Source of the DNA: Methanobacteriota archaeon
GTDB lineage: Archaea > JAADCQ01 > Methanopyri > Methanopyrales > Methanopyraceae
Assembly: GCA_027064425.1 (NCBI GenBank)
Contig: JAMOPO010000015.1
Span: 64,001 to 128,000 of the forward strand
Reading direction: 5' to 3'
Length of the DNA stretch: 64,000 nucleotides
The notes under the pieces were generated by a model, which worked only from the letters and a program-made list of their open reading frames with translations, was not told the origin of the DNA and made no database searches. Of this stretch, positions 8,049 to 16,903 are shown piece after piece. The first letter of the stretch is position 1. Every line of letters begins with the position of its first letter. A program made the position numbers and the translations under genes.

Positions 8049-8989
8049 AGTCGCTCCTTCACCTCCTCCGCGATGACCCTCGACAGCGCGGGTGGGACGG
8101 ACTCGCCCACCTGGTCGTACTGGGCCTCGTACCCACCCTCGAACACGTGATCGTCCGGGTAGCTCATCAGCCGGGCCTGCTCGCGCACGGTCAGCAGTCG
8201 GTCCTCGAACGGGTGGATGAACCTCGAGCCGCCCATCACGGTGGGCGCGGGCTTCCACGGGTGCAACCGCAGCCAGTTCTTGAACTCACCCTTCGCCCCC
8301 TTGATGACGTTCAGCGCCTGACCCCACCGCAGCCTCCTGATCCTACGCAGCTTCCGACGTGAGAGCGGCCGGCGCTCGTGGTTCGGGATGTCCGAACCGT
8401 CGGGCTCCGGGAGGTCACCGATCGCGTCCCAGACGGTCTTGGGCCGGTCCACCGTGGGCTCCGGCTCGATCTTCACGTTGGAGATGAAGACGCGCCGTCG
8501 GTAGGATGGGACCCCGTAGTCGACGGCCTGAAGGACGTTGAAGTACACCTCGTCGTACCCGACCCGCCTGAACTCCTTCCGCAGCGCCTTCTCCAGCGGC
8601 CCCTCGAGAATCGCCGGCACGTTCTCCATCACGAACACCTCGGGCTGCAGGTCCCCCACCAGCCGGATGAAGTGCAGGACCAGGCGGCCCGTGGGGTCGT
8701 CGTAGAGCCGGTCCAGCGGGTTGGGCCTGCGCTCCGCGTTGGCGGCCGTGAACGGCTCGCACGGCGGCCCCCCGATCACCACGTCCGGGTCTCCCAGCTC
8801 GCTCAGGATGTCCTCCGCGTCCACCCGCTTGATGTCCTCCTCCAGCACCTTCACCCCGAAGTTGTTCCGGTACGTGGCCGCGGGAGCCGGGTGGTTGTCC
8901 ACGCCGCCCAGGATCTTGAAGCCGGCCTCGCGGAAGCCCAGCGAGAACCCGCCGGCCCCGCAGAACAGGTCCACCACCTTCGGCTTCAT
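8045..8989 (-). CDS. DNA (cytosine-5) methyltransferase, orphan
   Basis: Motif I DLFCGAGG, IV GGPPCEPF, VI MENV, VIII YRRRVF, IX-X LTVREQARL/QVGESVPP. Confidence 0.92.
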   Translation of the reverse strand: MKPKVVDLFCGAGGFSLGFREAGFKILGGVDNHPAPAATYRNNFGVKVLEEDIKRVDAEDILSELGDPDVVIGGPPCEPFTAANAERRPNPLDRLYDDPTGRLVLHFIRLVGDLQPEVFVMENVPAILEGPLEKALRKEFRRVGYDEVYFNVLQAVDYGVPSYRRRVFISNVKIEPEPTVDRPKTVWDAIGDLPEPDGSDIPNHERRPLSRRKLRRIRRLRWGQALNVIKGAKGEFKNWLRLHPWKPAPTVMGGSRFIHPFEDRLLTVREQARLMSYPDDHVFEGGYEAQYDQVGESVPPALSRVIAEEVKERL

Positions 8990-9114
8990 GGCCCGGCCCC
9001 CGTGGAGTTCACTTCAACACCCTCGGCGGGATTCCCGGGCTTTTAATCGGGTCGCAGGGGGCGAGCGGTACGGCGATACGAATCGCACGATCATGGTGTT
9101 CAGGGGATCCGGGG

Positions 9115-9873
9115 TTGGACGCCCGGGCCGGCCTCGCCGTGGGCCTCATAGCGGCCCTGATCGTCGGCGCGGCGGTCGGGCACTATTACACCTCATCCCA
9201 GCAGCTGACCGTTTTCGCGGCCGCGAGCCTGAAGAAGCCGCTGACCGAGCTGGCCAGGCGGTACGAGAAGGAGAGGGGAGTCAAGGTCGCGCTCAACTTC
9301 GGCCCGTCCGGCGGTCTCACGGCACAGATAATGCAGGGGCAGAGGTGCGACCTGTTCTTCTCCGCGGACTGGAGGTACATCGTCAAGCTGCGGAAGGCCG
9401 GCAAGGCCGCGAGGACGAGGAAGTTCCTGAGGGATTACCTTGTGCTGGTCGTCTCCGAGACGGGCCGACGGAAGCGCATCGAGGACGTCAGGGACCTCAC
9501 AAGGCCGGGCGTGACGGTCGCCGTCGCCGACCCGAAGGCGCCAGTCGGCGAGTACGCTCAGCGCGCGCTGCAGCGGCTCGGGATCTGGGACACGATCGTC
9601 AAGAACGGGAACCTGAAGGCTCGGCCGGGTACCGTCAATCAGGTGGCCACGATGGTGAAGAAGGACCAGGTGGACGCCGGATTCGTCTATCGGAGCGTGG
9701 CCGTCGGATTCGGGCTGCCGATCGTGCAGACGCTCCCGCACTCGCTGACGGGCCCGATCGTCTGGGGAGCGGCGGTGATCAGGGGAGGCAACGAGCGGCT
9801 GGCCGAGGACTTCCTGAGCTACTGCCTGCAGCACATCGACGAGTTCGAAAAGTACGGGTGGGAACCGGCTTGA
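9115..9873 (+). CDS. modA: Molybdate/tungstate ABC transporter substrate-binding protein
   Basis: N-terminal anchor, FAAASL, FGPSGGL, DLFFSAD, APVGEYA, DAGFVYRS. Confidence 0.9.
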   Translation: MDARAGLAVGLIAALIVGAAVGHYYTSSQQLTVFAAASLKKPLTELARRYEKERGVKVALNFGPSGGLTAQIMQGQRCDLFFSADWRYIVKLRKAGKAARTRKFLRDYLVLVVSETGRRKRIEDVRDLTRPGVTVAVADPKAPVGEYAQRALQRLGIWDTIVKNGNLKARPGTVNQVATMVKKDQVDAGFVYRSVAVGFGLPIVQTLPHSLTGPIVWGAAVIRGGNERLAEDFLSYCLQHIDEFEKYGWEPA

Positions 9874-10661
9874 TCGGCAGGTACGAGCTCCTCGGCGCCC
9901 TGTTCCCACCCTTGTTCTTCCTGTTCATCGTGTTCCCGCTGGTGGTCCTGGCGCTGAACTTGACCCCGCAGGGGCTCGCGCAGGCGCTCGGTGACCCGTA
10001 CTTTTGGTCCGCCACGTTCAACACCATCCTGTGCGCCGTCGCGGCCGCGGTAATGGGCGTGGTGATCGCGGTGGGCTTCGGTTACTACCACCTGTTTAAG
10101 CGGGACTCGGTGATTTACCGGGTCGCCGACTTCCTCAACGACTTGCCCATCGCGCTGCCGCACACCGTTGCGGGACTCGCGCTGCTGCTCGCGTTCGGTC
10201 GACGGTACTTCTGGTGGCTGGGCGAGAACGGACTCGCGTTCACGCTCGTCGCCGTCACGCTCGCGATGCTCTTCGTGTCGTACCCGCTGGCCGCCCGAGC
10301 GGTGCAGGCGGGCCTTGAGGAGGTGGGGAGAGATCTCGTAGAGGTCGCCAGGACCCTGGGGGACTCCCCGGCGCAGGCCTACGCCAGGGTCGTCATCCCG
10401 GCGCTCCGGGAGGCCTTACTGGGCGGGTTCCTCCTCGGGTTCTCACGGTCGCTCAGCGAGTTCGCCGCCGTGATCATGTTCGGTGGAAACCTGCCCGGAA
10501 GGACCCAGGTGCTGGCCTCCTACGTGTTCACCCGGGTCGAGGCGGGCGACCTGGAGGCGGCCGTCGCGGCCAGCGTCTTCTGCATGGTACTCTCGCTGGT
10601 CATGGTGGCGCTGACACGCTCGCTGACCGGGGCCGGGGGACTCCGACGTGCTCAAGGTTGA
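9870..10661 (+). CDS. modB: Molybdate/tungstate ABC permease
   Basis: TTG overlapping modA stop; DLPIALPHTVAG, EAA loop VARTLG, RSLSEFAAVIMFGGN. Confidence 0.9.
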   Translation: MIGRYELLGALFPPLFFLFIVFPLVVLALNLTPQGLAQALGDPYFWSATFNTILCAVAAAVMGVVIAVGFGYYHLFKRDSVIYRVADFLNDLPIALPHTVAGLALLLAFGRRYFWWLGENGLAFTLVAVTLAMLFVSYPLAARAVQAGLEEVGRDLVEVARTLGDSPAQAYARVVIPALREALLGGFLLGFSRSLSEFAAVIMFGGNLPGRTQVLASYVFTRVEAGDLEAAVAASVFCMVLSLVMVALTRSLTGAGGLRRAQG

Positions 10662-11337
10662 GAACGTGCACTTCTCCTACGGCGACAGACCCGTCCTGCG
10701 CGGCGTGAGCCTGAGCGTTGAACCGGGCGAGGTGCGCGTGATCTTCGGTCCTAACGGCAGCGGCAAGTCCACGCTGCTGAGGGTCGTGGCCGGGATACTG
10801 CGGCCCGACCGGGGCCGGATCGTCATCGACGGGGAGGACGTCACCGACCGGCCACCCGAGGACCGTCGGGTCGGCTACGTCCCGCAGCGCCCGACACTGT
10901 TCCCGCACCTCACGGTGCGGGGTAACATCACCTACTCTTTAAGGAACGGTCGGGGGGACCCGGATCGACTGGACGAGCTCGTCAAGCTGCTGGGACTCGA
11001 GGAACACCTCGACCGGCGCCCGGACGAGCTCAGCGGTGGCTATCAGAGCCGCGTGGCGCTGGCCCGAGCGCTCTTCTCCGACCCCCGGGTGCTGCTTCTG
11101 GACGAGCCGCTCAGCGACGTCGATCCCGCCGCGAAGCGGGACCTGGTGAGGCGGTTTCGAGAGGTCCTTGACCGGGCGGGCGTGCCCACGCTCTACGTGA
11201 CGCACGACCCGTGGGAGGCGGAGTGCGTCGGTGACTCTTATACGGTGTTGCTGGGCGGCAGGGCGGTCGACGTCGACACCGTTGACGAGGCGATCGAACG
11301 GCTCAAGCGGGGCGCAGGCCTTGGGGAAGGGGCGTAA
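10648..11337 (+). CDS. modC: Molybdate/tungstate ABC ATPase
   Basis: GPNGSGKST, LSGG, LLLDEP, VTHD. Confidence 0.9.
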   Translation: MLKVENVHFSYGDRPVLRGVSLSVEPGEVRVIFGPNGSGKSTLLRVVAGILRPDRGRIVIDGEDVTDRPPEDRRVGYVPQRPTLFPHLTVRGNITYSLRNGRGDPDRLDELVKLLGLEEHLDRRPDELSGGYQSRVALARALFSDPRVLLLDEPLSDVDPAAKRDLVRRFREVLDRAGVPTLYVTHDPWEAECVGDSYTVLLGGRAVDVDTVDEAIERLKRGAGLGEGA

Positions 11338-12580
11338 GTACCGCGGGTTCGTCTACACCGACGACCTCACCCACCCGGCGAAGTTCCTCGAGTTCCTCCG
11401 CGAGCGCGTCGAGCCGCCGGAAGTCGAGGAGCTGGAAGTGGGGCCCGAGGTCGCCGGGCGCGTCCTGGCAGAGGACGTCCGGGCCGAGCGTCCCTCCCCG
11501 CCGTTCACTCGGTCCGCCATGGACGGGTACGCCGTCCGGGCCGAGGACGCGGAGCCCGGGGCCCGGCTGAAGGTGGTGGGGGAGTCCCGGATCGGCGAGG
11601 AGAGCGGGGTCAAGGTCGGGCCCGGGGAGGCGGCGTACGTGGACACCGGCGCCCGCGTTCCCGAGGGCGCCGACGCGGTCGTGCCGGTGGAGTTCGTGGA
11701 GCGTGACGGGGACGAGATCGTCATCAAGGAGGGGGTGGAACCGGGCGACAACCTGGATCGGCGGGGCTGCTACGTCGAGGAGGGTGAGATCCTGTACCCG
11801 GCCGGCCACGTGGTGGAGCCCGTGGACGTGGGCGTCATGCTGGAGCACGGGGTTGAGGAGGTCCGGGTCCGTCGCCCGCTGCGCGTCTCGGTGATCATCA
11901 CCGGGAGCGAGCTCGTGGAGCGGCCCTCGGAGCTCGAGTCTGAGACCCAGGTGGTTGAGTCGATCGGGCCCGTACTCGAGGCGGAGCTGGCCAGGCTGGG
12001 CTTCACCAAGCTCCTGGACCGGAGGCTCGTGGAGGACGACCCGGGGGAGATCGAGCGCGCGATCGTCGACGCCGCGGCCGAGTCCGACGTGCTGATCGTC
12101 ACCGGCGGGTCCTCCGTGGGCGAGCGGGACTACGTCAAGGAGATCCTCGAGGACGTGTTCGAGGACTTCATTCACGGGATCCGGGCCCGGCCCGGCCGTC
12201 CGTTCGGCGTGGCGCTCCGCGAGGACGCCGTGGCGTTCACCCTTCCGGGCTGGCCCACGTCGGCCTACACGACCTTCCGCGTGTGGGTGACCCCGTGCCT
12301 GCTCGCCCTGGCGGGCGCGGATCCGGAGGTTCTCGGCCTTGAGCTGCCGTGCGAGGAGGTCAGGGGTAAGAGGGCCCTGGGCGTGATCGCCCGGGTCAAG
12401 CTGGAGGATGGTCGGGCACGCGGGCTCCCGAGGGACCGCTCCAGCCATTACGCCCTCTTCCGTGAGACCGACGCCCTGGCCGTGCTCCCGCCGGGCGAGG
12501 AGGAGCGCGCGCTGATTCTGCCGCTGAGGCGCCGCGTGAACCCCTTCGAGTGGGTGGAGCGACGCTCAGGCGGCGACTGA
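11321..12580 (+). CDS. moeA: Molybdopterin molybdo/tungstotransferase MoeA
   Basis: GRVLAED, SAMDGYA, TGARVPEGADAVV, TGSEL, TGGSSVG, RPGRP, LPGWP; TTG start inferred. Confidence 0.9.
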   Translation: MGKGRKYRGFVYTDDLTHPAKFLEFLRERVEPPEVEELEVGPEVAGRVLAEDVRAERPSPPFTRSAMDGYAVRAEDAEPGARLKVVGESRIGEESGVKVGPGEAAYVDTGARVPEGADAVVPVEFVERDGDEIVIKEGVEPGDNLDRRGCYVEEGEILYPAGHVVEPVDVGVMLEHGVEEVRVRRPLRVSVIITGSELVERPSELESETQVVESIGPVLEAELARLGFTKLLDRRLVEDDPGEIERAIVDAAAESDVLIVTGGSSVGERDYVKEILEDVFEDFIHGIRARPGRPFGVALREDAVAFTLPGWPTSAYTTFRVWVTPCLLALAGADPEVLGLELPCEEVRGKRALGVIARVKLEDGRARGLPRDRSSHYALFRETDALAVLPPGEEERALILPLRRRVNPFEWVERRSGGD

Positions 12581-12619
12581 GTGTCCACTGCGCATCAACG
12601 GCCCCCGGCCGCCCTCGCC

Positions 12620-12626
12620 TTTTTAT
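12620..12626 (+). promoter_or_regulatory. TATA-like box upstream of fwd operon
   Basis: TTTTTAT in GC-rich intergenic region about 40 bp before fwdG start. Confidence 0.5.
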
Positions 12627-12662
12627 CGAGCATCCCGCGGGGCTCCGTAGGGAGCGGCGGGA

Positions 12663-12899
12663 TTGGTCGAGATCAAGGTCCACGAGGACCGATGCCACGG
12701 GTGCGGTAACTGCGTCGTCGCCTGCCCCGTCAACGCCAGGAACTCGCCGAACGCGTGGGGAGGGAAGGGGCCGGAGGAGGACGACGTCGTCATCAAGGTG
12801 GTGAACGGGGTGGTGAAGGTCGTAAACGAGGACCTGTGCGAGGCCTGCCTCACCTGCGAGCTCGCCTGTCCCGTCGACGCCATCGAGGTCCGGCCCTGA
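12663..12899 (+). CDS. fwdG: Formylmethanofuran dehydrogenase ferredoxin subunit G
   Basis: CHGCGNCVVACPVN and CEACLTCELACP 4Fe-4S motifs. Confidence 0.9.
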   Translation: MVEIKVHEDRCHGCGNCVVACPVNARNSPNAWGGKGPEEDDVVIKVVNGVVKVVNEDLCEACLTCELACPVDAIEVRP

Positions 12900-12913
12900 C
12901 GGGGGTGCCCGGG

Positions 12914-13312
12914 TTGGCCGAGTTCACTCTCATCACCGGCCGAACCATCTGGCAGGGGGAGGCTATCGAGACGGGCAAGGACGAGGAGATTTACCCCGAG
13001 GCCGTCGCGGTCTGCTACTTCAACCCGGCCGACATGGAGGAGCTCGGCATCCGGGATGGCGACCCCGTCAGGGTCAGGTCCGAGCACGGAGAGGTCGTCG
13101 TGAGGGCTCGCGCGGCCGAGACCGACGTCCCGCCCCGCGGGGTCGTGTTCATCCCGATGGGCCCGTGGGCGAACCGGGTGGTGGACCCGGACACCGCCAG
13201 CACCGGAATGCCGGGGTTCAAGGGCGTCAAGGTCGAGGTGGAACCCACGGATGAGGAGCCTGTCGAGGACATGTCCGAGCTGATGCGCAAGGAGTACCTG
13301 AAGGAAGAGTAG
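12914..13312 (+). CDS. fwdD: Formylmethanofuran dehydrogenase subunit D
   Basis: ITGRTIWQG, VFIPMGPWAN, TGMPGFKG; start TTG 12914 (or GTG 12905). Confidence 0.92.
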   Translation: MAEFTLITGRTIWQGEAIETGKDEEIYPEAVAVCYFNPADMEELGIRDGDPVRVRSEHGEVVVRARAAETDVPPRGVVFIPMGPWANRVVDPDTASTGMPGFKGVKVEVEPTDEEPVEDMSELMRKEYLKEE

Positions 13313-13374
13313 CCCTCACGCTCACCCTCTGGCGCTCGAGCTCGCCCTCTACAGCGGGAAGGGGGTGAGAACGA

Positions 13375-14679
13375 GTGGGGGACAGGGAGGTAGTCAAGGA
13401 CGTGGTGTGCCCGTTCTGAGGGACGCTGTGCGACGACCTAGAGGTGGTCGTGGAGGACGGTAAGATCGTCGAGGTGCGGCACGCGTGCAGGATCGGTGCG
13501 GCGAAGTTCCTCAGCGCGCAGGAGGAGGACCGGCCGACGGAGCCGATGATCCGGGAGAACGGTGAGTGGAAGAAGGTCGACTACGAGGACGCCGCCGAGG
13601 AGACCGCTCGGATCCTCGTCGAGGCCAAGCTGCCGATCCTGTACGGCTGGTCCGCCACGCTGGTTGAGGCGCACGAGAAGGGTATCGAGCTAGCGGAGCT
13701 CGTCGGTGGCGTCATCGACAACACCGCCTCGGTGTGACACGGCCCGTCGGTGCTGGCGCTCCAGGACGTGGGCGTGCCCAGCTGCACGCTGGGCGAGGTG
13801 AAGAACAGGGCGGACACGATCATCTACTGGGGCAGCAACCCGATGCACGCTCACCCGCGGCACATGAGCCGGTACACCACGTTCGCGCGCGGGTACTTCC
13901 GGCCGAAGGGTCGCCAGGACCGCACGATCATCGTCGTGGACCCGCGGAAGACCGCGACCGCCCGGCTAGCGGACGTGTACATCCAGGTGCGGCCGCACGA
14001 GGACTACGAGCTGATCAGCGCGCTCCGCGCGGCGGTGCACGGGGTCGAGATCGAGCGGGAGGAGGTCGCCGGCGTCCCGGTAGAGAAGATCTACGAGGTC
14101 GCGGACCTGCTCAAGGAGGCGAGCTTCGGCACGCTGTTCTGGGCCATGGGCCTGACGATGTCCCGCGGTAGGCACCGGAACATCGACAACGCGATCTGCC
14201 TGGTCCGGGACCTAAACGAGCACACCAAGTGGGTCCTAATCATGATGCGCGGGCACTACAACGTGACAGGGTTCAACGAGGTGCTCGCGTGGACCACGGG
14301 CTACCCGTACGCCGTGGACTTCACCCGCGGGTACCCGCGGTACAACCCGGGCGAGACCAGCACCGTGGACCTGCTGACCCGCGGCGAGGCGGACGCGATG
14401 ATGGTGGTCGCCAGCGACCCGGGCGCGCACTTCCCGCAGAAGGCGGTGGAGCGGATGGCCGAGATCCCGCTGGTGTGCGTGGACCCGCACTGGACGCCGA
14501 CGGCCGAGCTCGCGGACGTGTACGTGCCCACGGCGATCGCCGGCATCGAGTGGGAGGGCACCGCCTACCGCATGGATGCGGTACCCATCCGCATGCGCAA
14601 GGTCGTCGACCCGCCCGAGGGCCTGCTCAACGACGTCGAGTTCCTCGAGATGGTCATCGAGAAGGTCGAGGAGATGTAA
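13375..14679 (+). CDS. fwuB: Selenocysteine-containing formylmethanofuran dehydrogenase subunit B; 434 aa with in-frame TGA at 13417-13419 (codon 15) and 13735-13737 (codon 121)
   Basis: SD GGGGTGA then GTG; one continuous frame [21 protein letters not shown]...[15 protein letters not shown]...LGEVKNRAD...MRGHYNV...; SECIS hairpin downstream. Confidence 0.92.
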
Positions 14680-14712
14680 CGCCAAACCCCGGCACTCGGG
14701 GTCCCCGGGCCG

Positions 14713-14752
14713 CCCCGCGGGGCGAACCCCGCACCCGGGGAGCCCCGCGGGG
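14713..14752 (+). ncRNA. Archaeal SECIS element in fwuB 3' UTR
   Basis: CCCCGCGGGGC-GAA-CCCCG-CACC-CGGGG-A-GCCCCGCGGGG: 11-bp lower stem, GAA/A internal loop, GC upper stem. Confidence 0.88.
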
Positions 14753-14818
14753 TTAAGCGGGGGTAAGCCCCCCGCGGCCCGGGGCCCTCACCCCCTCCTC
14801 CCCTCAGGGGGTCCTCCG

Positions 14819-15145
14819 TTGGGGCGCGATCCCGAGCCCCGCTGCCCGTACTGCGGGTCCCCGTCCTGCGTCAACGAGTCCGCCCTGTCGCTGTTCCTCC
14901 GCGCCTCCGAGCGCATCGCGAGATACGTCGTGAAGGAGCGAGACAAGGTGGACGATGACGACCCCCTGTTCCGCCCCTCCTTCGGCGAGGTTGGCGTCTG
15001 CCGAGAGACCTCGCGCCGGATTTGGGCGTGCCCGTACTGCCGCTCCCTGATCCCCGAGCCGGAACCCGACGGGATGACCGCCCGGTGCCCCGAGTGCGGT
15101 CGCGAGGCCAACGTTGCCCCCTCACGCCGCAAGATCGTGTGCTGA
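14819..15145 (+). CDS. Cys-rich Zn-ribbon protein inside fwd operon
   Basis: CPYC, CPYC and CPEC motifs plus extra Cys; TTG start inferred. Confidence 0.7.
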   Translation: MGRDPEPRCPYCGSPSCVNESALSLFLRASERIARYVVKERDKVDDDDPLFRPSFGEVGVCRETSRRIWACPYCRSLIPEPEPDGMTARCPECGREANVAPSRRKIVC

Positions 15146-15154
15146 CGCGGGGGG

Positions 15155-16903
15155 ATGCCCTTGGCCAAAGAGCTCCTGATCAAGAACGCGTGCGTGTACG
15201 ACCCGCTCAACGGTATTGAGGGCGAGGTGATGGACCTGGGCGTGAAGGATGGCAAGATCGTGGACCCGTCCGAGGTGGACGAGTCGAAGGCGAAGGTCAT
15301 CGACGCGGAAGGACGCCTGACCATGGCCGGTGGGGTCGACATTCACGCGCACGTGGCCGGGCCCAAGGTGAACGTCGGCCGCATCTTCCGCCCGGAGGAC
15401 AGCCGCCGGCTGCAGGTGGCGCTCAAGAAGCTCGGTCCCCGGTCCGGCTCCGGCTTCTCCGTCCCGTCCACGACGCTGACGGGCTACATGTACGCGCAGA
15501 TGGGCTACACGACCGTGATGGAGGCCGCGACCCCGCCCCTAATGACGCGGCACACGCACGAGGAGATCCGGGACACGCCCATCCTGGACCAGAGCGCCTA
15601 CACTCTGATGGGTAACAACTGGATCCTGTACGAGTACATCCGGGAGGGAGAGCTGGAGAAGGCGGCCGCGTTCGCGGCCTGGCTGCTGCGGGCGACGAAG
15701 GGCTTCGTGATCAAGATGGTCAACCCCGGCGGCACGGAGGCGTGGGGCTGGGGTAAGAACGTCCACAGCCTGGACGACGAGGTCCCGTACTTCGGCCTGA
15801 CGCCGGCGGAGATCTACCAGAACTACGTCAAGATCAACGAGCTGCTGGGCCTACCGCACTCCATCCACATCCACCCGAACCTGCTGGGCGAGCCCGGCAA
15901 CTACGAGATCACCCTGGGCACGTGGGACGCGGTCCGTGACGCGGGCGTCGATCCCGACCCGCAGCTGGGCGAGCGGGAGCAGATCGTGCACAGCACTCAC
16001 GTGCAGTTCCACGCGTACGGTGGTGACTCCTGGGCGACCTTCGAGTCCCGGGCGGAGGACATCGCGAAGTACCTGAACAAGCACGAGGAGGTCACGATCG
16101 ACCTGGGCGCCGTGACCCTCGACGAGACCACGACCATGACCGCGGACGGCCCGCTGGAGTGGGAGCTGCACGAGCTGACCGGCTTCAAGTGGGCGAACTG
16201 CGACGTCGAGGTCGAGACCGGCTCCGGCGTCGTCCCGTTCATTTACAGCCCGAAGAACCCCGTGCACTCCGTCCAGTGGGCCATCGGCCTCGAGATCGCC
16301 CTGCTGACCGAGAACCCGTGGCAGGTGGTCATCTCGACGGACCACCCCAACGCCGGCCCGTTCCACCGGTACCCGCGGGTCATCGCCTGGCTGATGAGCG
16401 AGCCGTACCGGGAGGAGTGGCTGGAGAGAGTGCACGACTGGGTCGGCCAGCGCGCGGTTCTGGGCACCATCGACCGAGAGTACACCTGGACGGAGGTGGC
16501 CATCACCACCCGGGCCGCGCCCGCCAAGATGCTGGGACTGTCCGATCGGATCGGGCACCTGGGCGAGGGCGCCTACGCGCACATCGCGATCTACGACATC
16601 AAGCCGGACGAGGTGGACCCGTCCCGGGACTACGCTGAGGTCGAGCGAGCCCTGGAGCAGGCTTGGCTGGTCGTGAAGGACGGCGAGATCGTCGTGCAGG
16701 ACGGCGTGGTGGTCAACGAGGTTACCGGTCGGACCTACTGGGTGGACGTGAAGGTGCCCGAGGACATCCTGGAGGAGGTGAAGAAGGACCTGGAGACCAA
16801 GTTCCGGCGCTACTACTCCGTGAACCTGGGCAACTACCAGGTGCAGGACGTGTACCTCCCGCGAGAGGAGCGGATCGTGATCGACGCCCGAGACCGCTTC
16901 TAG
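15155..16903 (+). CDS. fwdA: Formylmethanofuran dehydrogenase subunit A
   Basis: GGVDIHAHVAGPKVNVGR, KMVNPGG, STDHPNAGPF amidohydrolase motifs. Confidence 0.96.
   Translation: MPLAKELLIKNACVYDPLNGIEGEVMDLGVKDGKIVDPSEVDESKAKVIDAEGRLTMAGGVDIHAHVAGPKVNVGRIFRPEDSRRLQVALKKLGPRSGSGFSVPSTTLTGYMYAQMGYTTVMEAATPPLMTRHTHEEIRDTPILDQSAYTLMGNNWILYEYIREGELEKAAAFAAWLLRATKGFVIKMVNPGGTEAWGWGKNVHSLDDEVPYFGLTPAEIYQNYVKINELLGLPHSIHIHPNLLGEPGNYEITLGTWDAVRDAGVDPDPQLGEREQIVHSTHVQFHAYGGDSWATFESRAEDIAKYLNKHEEVTIDLGAVTLDETTTMTADGPLEWELHELTGFKWANCDVEVETGSGVVPFIYSPKNPVHSVQWAIGLEIALLTENPWQVVISTDHPNAGPFHRYPRVIAWLMSEPYREEWLERVHDWVGQRAVLGTIDREYTWTEVAITTRAAPAKMLGLSDRIGHLGEGAYAHIAIYDIKPDEVDPSRDYAEVERALEQAWLVVKDGEIVVQDGVVVNEVTGRTYWVDVKVPEDILEEVKKDLETKFRRYYSVNLGNYQVQDVYLPREERIVIDARDRF

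Follow-up and report, generated by a model that had tools for sequence, protein, structure and literature searches.

How could a gene interrupted by two in-frame TGA codons, one of them where its relatives have a cysteine of an iron–sulfur cluster motif, be read through to a complete enzyme? The gene is fwuB, by homology that of the B subunit of selenium-type formylmethanofuran dehydrogenase, and it lies in a 64,000-nucleotide (nt) stretch of DNA (the window, from whose first letter all positions are counted) corresponding to positions 64001–128000 of contig JAMOPO010000015.1, or C15, of a draft genome (GCA_027064425.1, here G000; 1.54 Mb, 57 contigs, 99% complete) from a Methanopyrus-like archaeon, which we take to be a deep-sea methanogen. 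We consider it likely that the extra TGA, at codon 15, is a recent change from cysteine to selenocysteine (Sec) that would be decoded through the selenocysteine insertion sequence (SECIS) already present in the 3′ untranslated region (UTR). We focus here on whether this codon is real, what it replaces, how it could be decoded and whether the gene is being lost. The features on which the argument rests are as follows.

13361–13368, plus strand: Shine-Dalgarno-like GGGGGTGA, 6 nt 5′ of the GTG at 13375 (direct reading)
13375–14679, plus strand: fwuB coding sequence, 434 codons and a TAA stop (14677–14679), GTG start, two in-frame TGAs (direct reading; TIGR03129)
13408–13488, plus strand: N-terminal [4Fe-4S] motif, C12-x2-U15-x3-C19-x18-C38 (motif cysteines in 16 homologues; PF04879 on residues 10–35)
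13417–13419, plus strand: extra TGA, codon 15, context VVCPF-TGA-GTLCDD (the ten relatives with this codon read have TGT or TGC)
13735–13737, plus strand: active-site TGA, codon 121, context NTASV-TGA-HGP, U-H-x-P, tungsten ligand position (orthologue alignment; 5T5I_B)

Read directly, the frame runs from its GTG, with a Shine-Dalgarno motif before it, to a TAA and has two TGAs and no more, at the codons (15 and 121) where an earlier description made from the letters alone (the initial annotation) had put them. That description had placed the end of the feature at 14752, which matches the end of the 3′ UTR hairpin discussed below; the gene itself ends at 14679. Its identification of FwuB is borne out, the product scoring 683.6 bits against TIGR03129, the FwdB/FwuB equivalog model (cut-off 327.8; residues 9–431 on profile positions 1–421), matching the solved FwdB chains 9SFI_Q (E 3.7e-193) and 5T5I_B (E 8.5e-185) and being 87–90% identical to the proteins of congeners. 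On these matches it is the selenium-type formylmethanofuran dehydrogenase subunit B, and would belong to a CO2-reducing tungsten enzyme. That the methanogen is Methanopyrus-like is suggested by its use of Sec, which in Euryarchaeota is restricted to Methanococcales and Methanopyrus (PMC11227280), and by its single-genus phylum-level group (below). Standard open reading frame (ORF) calling splits the gene into 13444–13737 (97 residues) and 13750–14679 (309 residues), and its N-terminus is thus lost from ORF lists, as the initial annotation said.

The two codons occupy different ligand positions. U121-H122 align with residues 118–119 of 5T5I_B (Cys118-His119 of the M. wolfeii enzyme), in keeping with the Sec at the tungstopterin that the initial annotation placed at codon 121; Cys118 of M. 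wolfeii FwdB is the catalytic tungsten ligand (PMC6926001, PMC12054007). C12, U15, C19 and C38, on the other hand, are the sole Cys or Sec residues in the first 120, and PF04879 matches residues 10–35 with 22.5 bits (cut-off 22.7, E 1.1e-4). From this spacing and from 16 homologues, the N-terminal motif would be a [4Fe-4S] site, again as first proposed, with codon 15 as its second cysteine position, and the residue at codon 15 is by homology a probable cluster ligand. The N-terminal cluster of FwdB relays electrons to the tungstopterin (PMC6926001).

First of all, the TGA at codon 15 has to be a genuine feature of the DNA. An artefact at 13419, arising in sequencing, in polishing or from a chimeric assembly, could be suspected in a 57-contig draft in which 13389–13470 is shared with other sequences of the sample and the N-terminus of the paralogue is unassembled. 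A run search returned six DNA runs from three studies and no RNA run, and the contigs of four (X1, X2, X3 and X5) were compared with the window. The X1 contig (record 1, 13000–13452) spans 13419 without a single difference, and those of X2 (record 9, 13000–13439; six differences), X3 (record 17, 13022–13452; two differences and a 9-nt insertion after 13342) and X5 (record 25, 13000–13500; six differences) depart from the window only away from 13419. An A is found at this position in contigs of four runs, two studies and four haplotypes, every counted difference being located elsewhere, and it is joined in the same contigs to the unique fwuD-fwuB spacer only 30 nt away. The codon-15 TGA is real, not an error. 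The comparison of A with C at 13419 that the initial annotation proposed thus gave A in the contigs of all four runs, with none of the TGC it had named as the sign of misassembly, and with four haplotypes linked to unique upstream sequence an artefact is extremely unlikely. Short, deeper contigs over about 13389–13473 indicate a segment common to other sequences in the samples; the depth jumps and contigs break there. The 9-nt insertion of X3 is a repeat of a local CGCCCTCTA unit, a strain-level length variation just 5′ of the ribosome-binding site. A strain-level dN/dS (ratio of nonsynonymous to synonymous divergence) from 30 classified contig variants was not used: the downstream contigs are short, mix in paralogues or other species (17 differences in 176 nt in one example) and are unphaseable with TGA15.

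Second, the substitution is new, as the initial annotation had claimed, to judge from the 16 of 16 other FwdB/FwuB N-termini (11 related genomes) that have a cysteine in this column; among the ten relatives whose codon was read, it is TGT in eight and TGC in two. The TGA of codon 121 is common to six orthologues, with TGT in the Cys paralogue. A survey of Methanopyri homologues for a TGA at codon 15, also proposed at the outset, found none in five congener genomes, where none of the ten FwdB matches has two TGAs; the congener set is a phylum-level group with a single genus and six species, including that of the window. The same holds for all 69 FwdB matches in 40 Methanococci genomes (50 with one TGA, 18 with none and one with a TAA). 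The degenerate pattern C-P-F-TGA-G-x-x-C-D-D returned no stretch from a set of one genome per species covering 185,579 species, in which the window's own genome is possibly not included, and a single one (L035) from 241 million metagenome records; L035 lacks FwdB context, looks non-coding and is read as chance. In the sequences compared, the codon-15 TGA is confined to one species-level lineage.

The homologues also show features of their own. G001 has two near-identical fwuB-type copies, L009 (G001:C1:553194–554489, minus strand) and L022 (G001:C1:155316–156608), separated by a synonymous divergence (dS) of 0.01 and both with the active-site TGA. L009 stands on a 3′ flank typical of a Cys-type fwdB locus, with no GAA/A hairpin in the 200-nt 3′ flank by minimum-free-energy folding and by eye, and looks like a gene conversion of fwdB by fwuB. 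In G002, fwuB (L007) and fwdB (L023) have the same DNA in the codons around the Fe4S4 motif, and their proteins hardly differ over the first ~80 residues, a pattern suggestive of gene conversion between these paralogues. The fwdB paralogue of G000 itself (G000:C49:3–494) is assembled only from about residue 268, at a contig end, and the Methanococci match with an in-frame TAA (G049:C1:630117–631391, FwdB-like) may be a broken copy or an alignment run-over.

Third, decoding of UGA as Sec calls for a SECIS, and the 3′ UTR contains two nested features.

14703–14784, plus strand: three-way 3′ UTR structure of an outer helix, the SECIS hairpin and a second G/C hairpin at 14757–14775 (fold z −4.23; four orthologues)
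14712–14753, plus strand: SECIS hairpin, GAA at 14724–14726 opposite a single A at 14741, with G-C flanks

The SECIS hairpin begins 33 nt past the stop codon; its lower helix has 12 bp, its G/C upper helix 5 bp, and the loop reads CACC. The region 14703–14784 folds better than 200 of 200 shuffled versions, and in an alignment of four orthologues (three other species) none of its 32 pairs is broken and one is compensatory, G-C becoming A-U in two of the four sequences. Methanogen SECIS elements are UTR hairpins with an asymmetric internal loop, bordered by G-C pairs, in which GAA faces a single A (PMC11881835); the fwuB hairpin fits this definition and would by that token direct recoding, so that the GAA/A element reported 3′ of the gene stands, conserved in the four orthologues. 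A search of 12500–15500 against Rfam with E up to 10 gave no SECIS family match, with no check made on whether Rfam models this type of SECIS, and three weak matches (a microRNA and two C/D snoRNAs), far under their gathering scores, were dismissed. A strict GAA/A scan of the genome gave ten matches, of which seven adjoin fruA, fdhA (in the 5′ UTR), fwuB, selD, vhuD, vhuU and hdrA, and none inside fwuB; the 3′ hairpin is the sole SECIS-like element at the locus, which agrees with the proposal that one element would serve both UGAs. Since it is shared with orthologues, the new TGA came without a new SECIS. In fruA (G000:C3 near 33794) and selD (G000:C15 near 274904), both on the minus strand, a TGA appears to serve as stop codon 13 nt before the GAA of the gene's own SECIS, inside the lower helix, presumably too near for recoding. 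At G000:C5:10405 (plus strand), a GAA/A hairpin lies ~150 nt 5′ of fdhA, in the 5′ UTR, which agrees with what PMC11881835 gives for M. kandleri fdhA.

The genome also encodes the Sec machinery, namely tRNA-Sec, SepSecS (562.6 bits), SelB (330.2 bits), SelD with a TGA of its own and a full-length PSTK (253.2 bits, cut-off 290.5). In fwuB, UGA15 lies 1307 nt and UGA121 989 nt from the SECIS, and the canonical UGA of hdrA in the same genome lies 1452 nt from its own, so that distance is no obstacle for UGA15. We thus envisage the following course of events. In this species lineage, the codon of the second [4Fe-4S]-motif cysteine would have changed from TGY (TGT or TGC) to TGA by a single transversion, in a gene whose mRNA already possessed a 3′ UTR SECIS recoding the active-site UGA121. 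Given this SECIS and an intact machinery, UGA15 is most likely recoded as Sec too. The resulting full-length FwuB would hold a pterin-proximal [4Fe-4S] cluster with one selenolate and three thiolate ligands and would still work as an enzyme, although its yield would probably suffer somewhat; Sec insertion at codon 15, Se–Fe ligation and enzyme activity are all predictions from the sequence.

Fourth, the gene would have to be maintained. An unlikely alternative course is loss of function, in which TGA15 is plain nonsense and fwuB, like the Sec-type hdrA considered below, is a young pseudogene while the flux passes through the Cys isoforms fwdB and hdrA-Cys; Cys paralogues of both genes are indeed present, TGA15 is unique to one lineage and the TGA-bearing fwuB-like copy of G001, with no recognised 3′ SECIS hairpin in its 200-nt flank, suggests that apparently broken copies can persist. 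Several features of the gene argue the other way. Pairwise dN/dS of fwuB against four orthologues and one paralogue is 0.018–0.164, inside the range of other pairs. Its unique changes comprise five amino acids (K5E, C15U, G128A, I277V and I345V) and seven synonymous codons, compared with 12 and 16, 28 and 18, and 19 and 69 in the other three orthologues; fwuB has the fewest amino-acid changes of the four (a change counts as unique where the other three full-length orthologues agree, the duplicate L009, the truncated copy L010 and the paralogue L023 being left out). There is no frameshift or further stop, and the initial statement that the rest of the gene is intact thus remains in force. By these measures, fwuB shows no decay. 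Furthermore, Cys-to-TGA accounts for 7 of the 118 one-step nonsense changes open to fwuB and 31 of the 236 open to hdrA, so that if both extra stops were random knock-outs, the joint expectation of their both being Cys-to-TGA would be about 0.8%; that only Cys-to-UGA changes survived argues for UGA being read as Sec. The gene also retains an intact SECIS and canonical Sec codon, and the genome an intact Sec machinery; TGA15 is common to four diverged haplotypes, and the site of the extra TGA in hdrA, codon 16, is a recurrent Sec site elsewhere.

The hdrA gene thus deserves closer description. The Sec-type hdrA of this genome (G000:C27:217130–219142, minus strand; L036:231–2243) has two TGAs, the usual one at codon 200 (C-A-M-U) and an extra one at codon 16 (V-F-V-C-H-U-G-V-N-I), 184 codons apart, the extra UGA lying 2004 nt from the SECIS. 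In congeners, codon 16 is TGC or TGT in four orthologues and two Cys-type paralogues, and none of the 52 HdrA matches in the 40 Methanococci genomes has more than one TGA (36 have one, 16 none). The genes fruA, selD and fdhA each agree with their orthologues in having one and the same TGA, and among the six genes compared (fwuB, hdrA, vhuD, fruA, selD and fdhA; vhuU left out) a lineage-specific gain of TGA is found only in fwuB and hdrA. A search of species genomes with the pattern [FY]-V-C-H-TGA-G-x-N-I, for which our own rough chance expectation is about 9, gave 61 stretches (L061–L121), 57 of which translate as HdrA-like N-termini (R-I-G-V-F-V-C-H-U-G...); the other four (L093, L103, L116 and L120) look like chance. 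The HdrA-like stretches belong to metagenome-assembled genomes (MAGs) of Asgard archaea (Promethearchaeota, Hermod-, Hod-, Thor- and Jordarchaeia), to MAGs of Desulfobacterota type and to a few with other labels (uncultured archaeon or bacterium, Thermoflexales, Planctomycetota). Codon 16 of hdrA is therefore a recurrent natural Sec site, and this lineage, as judged from the genes compared, gained its TGA there independently of the Asgard and Desulfobacterota-type genes. In some of the Asgard copies of HdrA, another TGA (S-L-U-T-E-G-G) follows about 33 codons after C-H-U-G-x-N-I.

The position of the two new codons allows an additional explanation, one we hold to be quite unlikely, in which UGA15 of fwuB and UGA16 of hdrA act mainly as early gates for selenium, their nearness to the start mattering more than their chemistry. 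With ample Sec-tRNA they would be read through; under selenium shortage translation would stop after 14–15 residues and not leave cluster-binding fragments of 120 or 199 residues. Both new UGAs do fall within the first 16 codons, out of 7 Cys codons in fwuB and 31 in hdrA, a point made post hoc, and selenoprotein mRNAs including that of fwuB are still transcribed without selenium in M. maripaludis (PMC11097638). The hdrA site is, however, Sec in many Asgard and Desulfobacterota-type genes, which speaks for chemistry rather than position. This hypothetical checkpoint would in any case still need Sec to be inserted; it overlaps and is compatible with a Sec gain decoded through the existing SECIS.

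A last way of accounting for the codon, which we consider very unlikely, is that translation re-initiates at a downstream in-frame GTG, for instance at codon 24 (ORF 13444–13737), and yields FwuB without three of its four cluster ligands. In-frame GTGs occur at 13444 and onward; however, none of these downstream GTGs is preceded by a Shine-Dalgarno motif, codons 1–23 are as conserved as in relatives and the protein made would be missing the cluster through which electrons reach the tungstopterin (PMC6926001).

A number of points weigh against a Sec gain at codon 15 and have to be set beside this evidence. The Sec has no comparative conservation, being limited to one lineage, and should the mutation be recent, relaxed selection would be hard to detect at so low a divergence. 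Cys-type paralogues, fwdB (C49) and hdrA, are present in the genome, so that the organism could withstand the loss of its Sec isoforms, and two UGAs would multiply the cost of inefficient recoding. The PF04879 score is 0.2 bits short of its cut-off. The runs amount to approximately two independent sources, since X1 may be the genome's source sample and X2, X3 and X5 come from one study; the run data are Logan contigs, which drop rare variants, and the variant comparison is among the rows listed, with 45 further rows outside them. Finally, the codon-16 TGA of hdrA is known from the assembly alone.

A selenium-dependent tungsten formylmethanofuran dehydrogenase subunit B, FwuB, was reportedly described by Vorholt et al. 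in 1997. The FwuB of Methanopyrus kandleri and of Methanococcales and the one described here have in common the TIGR03129 match, the Sec in U-H-x-P, the fwuD-fwuB gene order and the 3′ UTR SECIS; they differ in the second TGA, which here replaces the second Fe4S4-motif cysteine, whereas the known family has one Sec (PMC13188914). Table 1 of that 2026 review gives one Sec (U-H-x-P) for FwdB, one for HdrA and two for VhuD. What appears to be new is thus a second TGA in a known selenoprotein, a case strengthened by the parallel gain in hdrA. We found neither a literature report nor, in a genome search confined to the CPF-U-G-xx-CDD motif, any case of Sec at the N-terminal cluster ligand in FwdB or the wider Mo/W-pterin family; a literature search for a Sec-ligated [4Fe-4S] precedent gave a single, irrelevant review. 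Extra UGAs might be recorded in two tables of Methanopyrus selenoprotein genes and SECIS elements that lay beyond this search, Table S6 of PMC11227280 and Table S3 of PMC11881835.

The initial annotation had cited VhuD as an example of Sec at Fe-S cysteine motifs, a precedent that is imprecise: the Cys or Sec of the MvhD family is near, and not a ligand of, the [2Fe-2S] cluster according to a 2026 preprint. VhuD of Methanococcales and Methanopyrus does have, like fwuB here, two UGAs in one ORF with a single canonical 3′ SECIS; the VhuD of G000 and those of three congeners have two TGAs and one SECIS. The VhuD UGAs are ~50 codons apart, at 390 and 237 nt from the SECIS, compared with 106 codons and 1307 nt for UGA15 in fwuB; according to Mariotti et al. 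2016 (PMC4989117), the spacing of 50 codons is the record for a single archaeal SECIS, and HdrA with more than one Sec had been found only in Lokiarchaeota. In G004, the VhuD match (G004:C1:15361–15750) has one TGA and one TAA and may be a broken copy or an alignment run-over. HdrA residue 197, Cys in the crystallised Cys form and Sec in Sec-type enzymes, would be the better precedent: it is described as binding the N-terminal FeS cluster (PMC9012536), thus sharing with codon 15 a Sec at an Fe-S ligand position and the same electron-bifurcating machinery, in another protein family. Even this precedent is debated, a 2026 cryo-electron microscopy paper assigning Sec197 instead to a Cys-Sec (selenenylsulfide) relay that connects cluster A3 with flavin adenine dinucleotide (FAD). 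The multi-Sec HdrA of Lokiarchaeota and other Asgard archaea likewise has extra Sec at conserved cysteines of an Fe-S flavoprotein, one of them at a [4Fe-4S]-motif cysteine, and differs in having a eukaryote-like SECIS (PMC4989117). In Asgard archaea FmdB is Cys-containing, with no FwdB or FmdB selenoprotein reported there (PMC11227280). Formate dehydrogenase H/FdhA, a Mo/W-bis(pyranopterin guanine dinucleotide) enzyme, shares the fold, the N-terminal four-cysteine [4Fe-4S] domain and a Sec metal ligand; the fdhA of G000 has one TGA and a 5′ UTR SECIS.

The genes around fwuB in the window are the following.

8721–11337, plus strand: molybdate/tungstate-type ATP-binding cassette (ABC) transporter, a permease (C-terminal part of ORF 8721–10661) and an ATPase (10648–11337) (NCBIfam ModB/WtpB-like and WtpC/ModC-like, all below cut-off)
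11231–12580, plus strand: MoeA-type molybdopterin molybdo/tungsto-transferase (NCBIfam PRK14498 261.6 bits, MoeA model 220.2 bits, both below equivalog cut-offs)
12755–13312, plus strand: fwuD/fwdD, capping 'fourth domain' subunit (NF042908 FwdD 196.1 bits, cut-off 175, residues 56–183; Pfam PF01568)
14819–15145, plus strand: small ORF between fwuB and fwdA, containing a CPYCG...C motif, start uncertain (no family match)
15155–16903, plus strand: fwdA/fwuA amidohydrolase subunit (TIGR03121 876 bits, cut-off 392.75), 476 nt 3′ of fwuB

The tungstate/molybdate-type transporter and moeA (8721–12580, plus strand) stand directly 5′ of fwuDB, which brings together the genes for metal uptake, for cofactor insertion and for the enzyme; the true start of fwuD is probably downstream of 12755. 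DNA with the same CPYCG...C motif as the small ORF lies 3′ of fwuB in L007, L008 and L022 (three congeners), and the ORF itself matches no Pfam family above threshold, DUF7575 at 19.2 bits being under its cut-off.

What would the finding mean? In practical terms, gene callers split both fwuB and hdrA, whose N-termini are missing from annotation. If both UGAs of these genes are decoded, the spacing served by one canonical archaeal SECIS would rise from about 50 to 106–184 codons, with a reach of up to 2 kb. Taken further, the lineage could be spreading Sec adaptively into cluster-associated cysteines of the Hdr-Vhu-Fwd machinery, by TGY-to-TGA changes in genes that already own a 3′ SECIS. We regard this as rather doubtful; if true, the gains would tune the potentials of two clusters (in FwuB beside the tungsten site, in HdrA beside Sec197 and FAD) or gate translation by selenium supply, and FwuB would be a Mo/W-pterin enzyme with a Se-ligated [4Fe-4S] cluster. 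A more general route by which archaeal selenoproteomes could grow, in which every Cys codon of a gene that possesses a distal 3′ SECIS is one transversion away from Sec, finds support in the parallel gain in hdrA. Finally, if UGA15 is Sec, this enzyme would be a natural test of the effect of a selenolate on a low-potential [4Fe-4S] cluster feeding a CO2-reducing tungsten site, for which the Cys form in sister species, at 87–90% identity, would be the built-in control.

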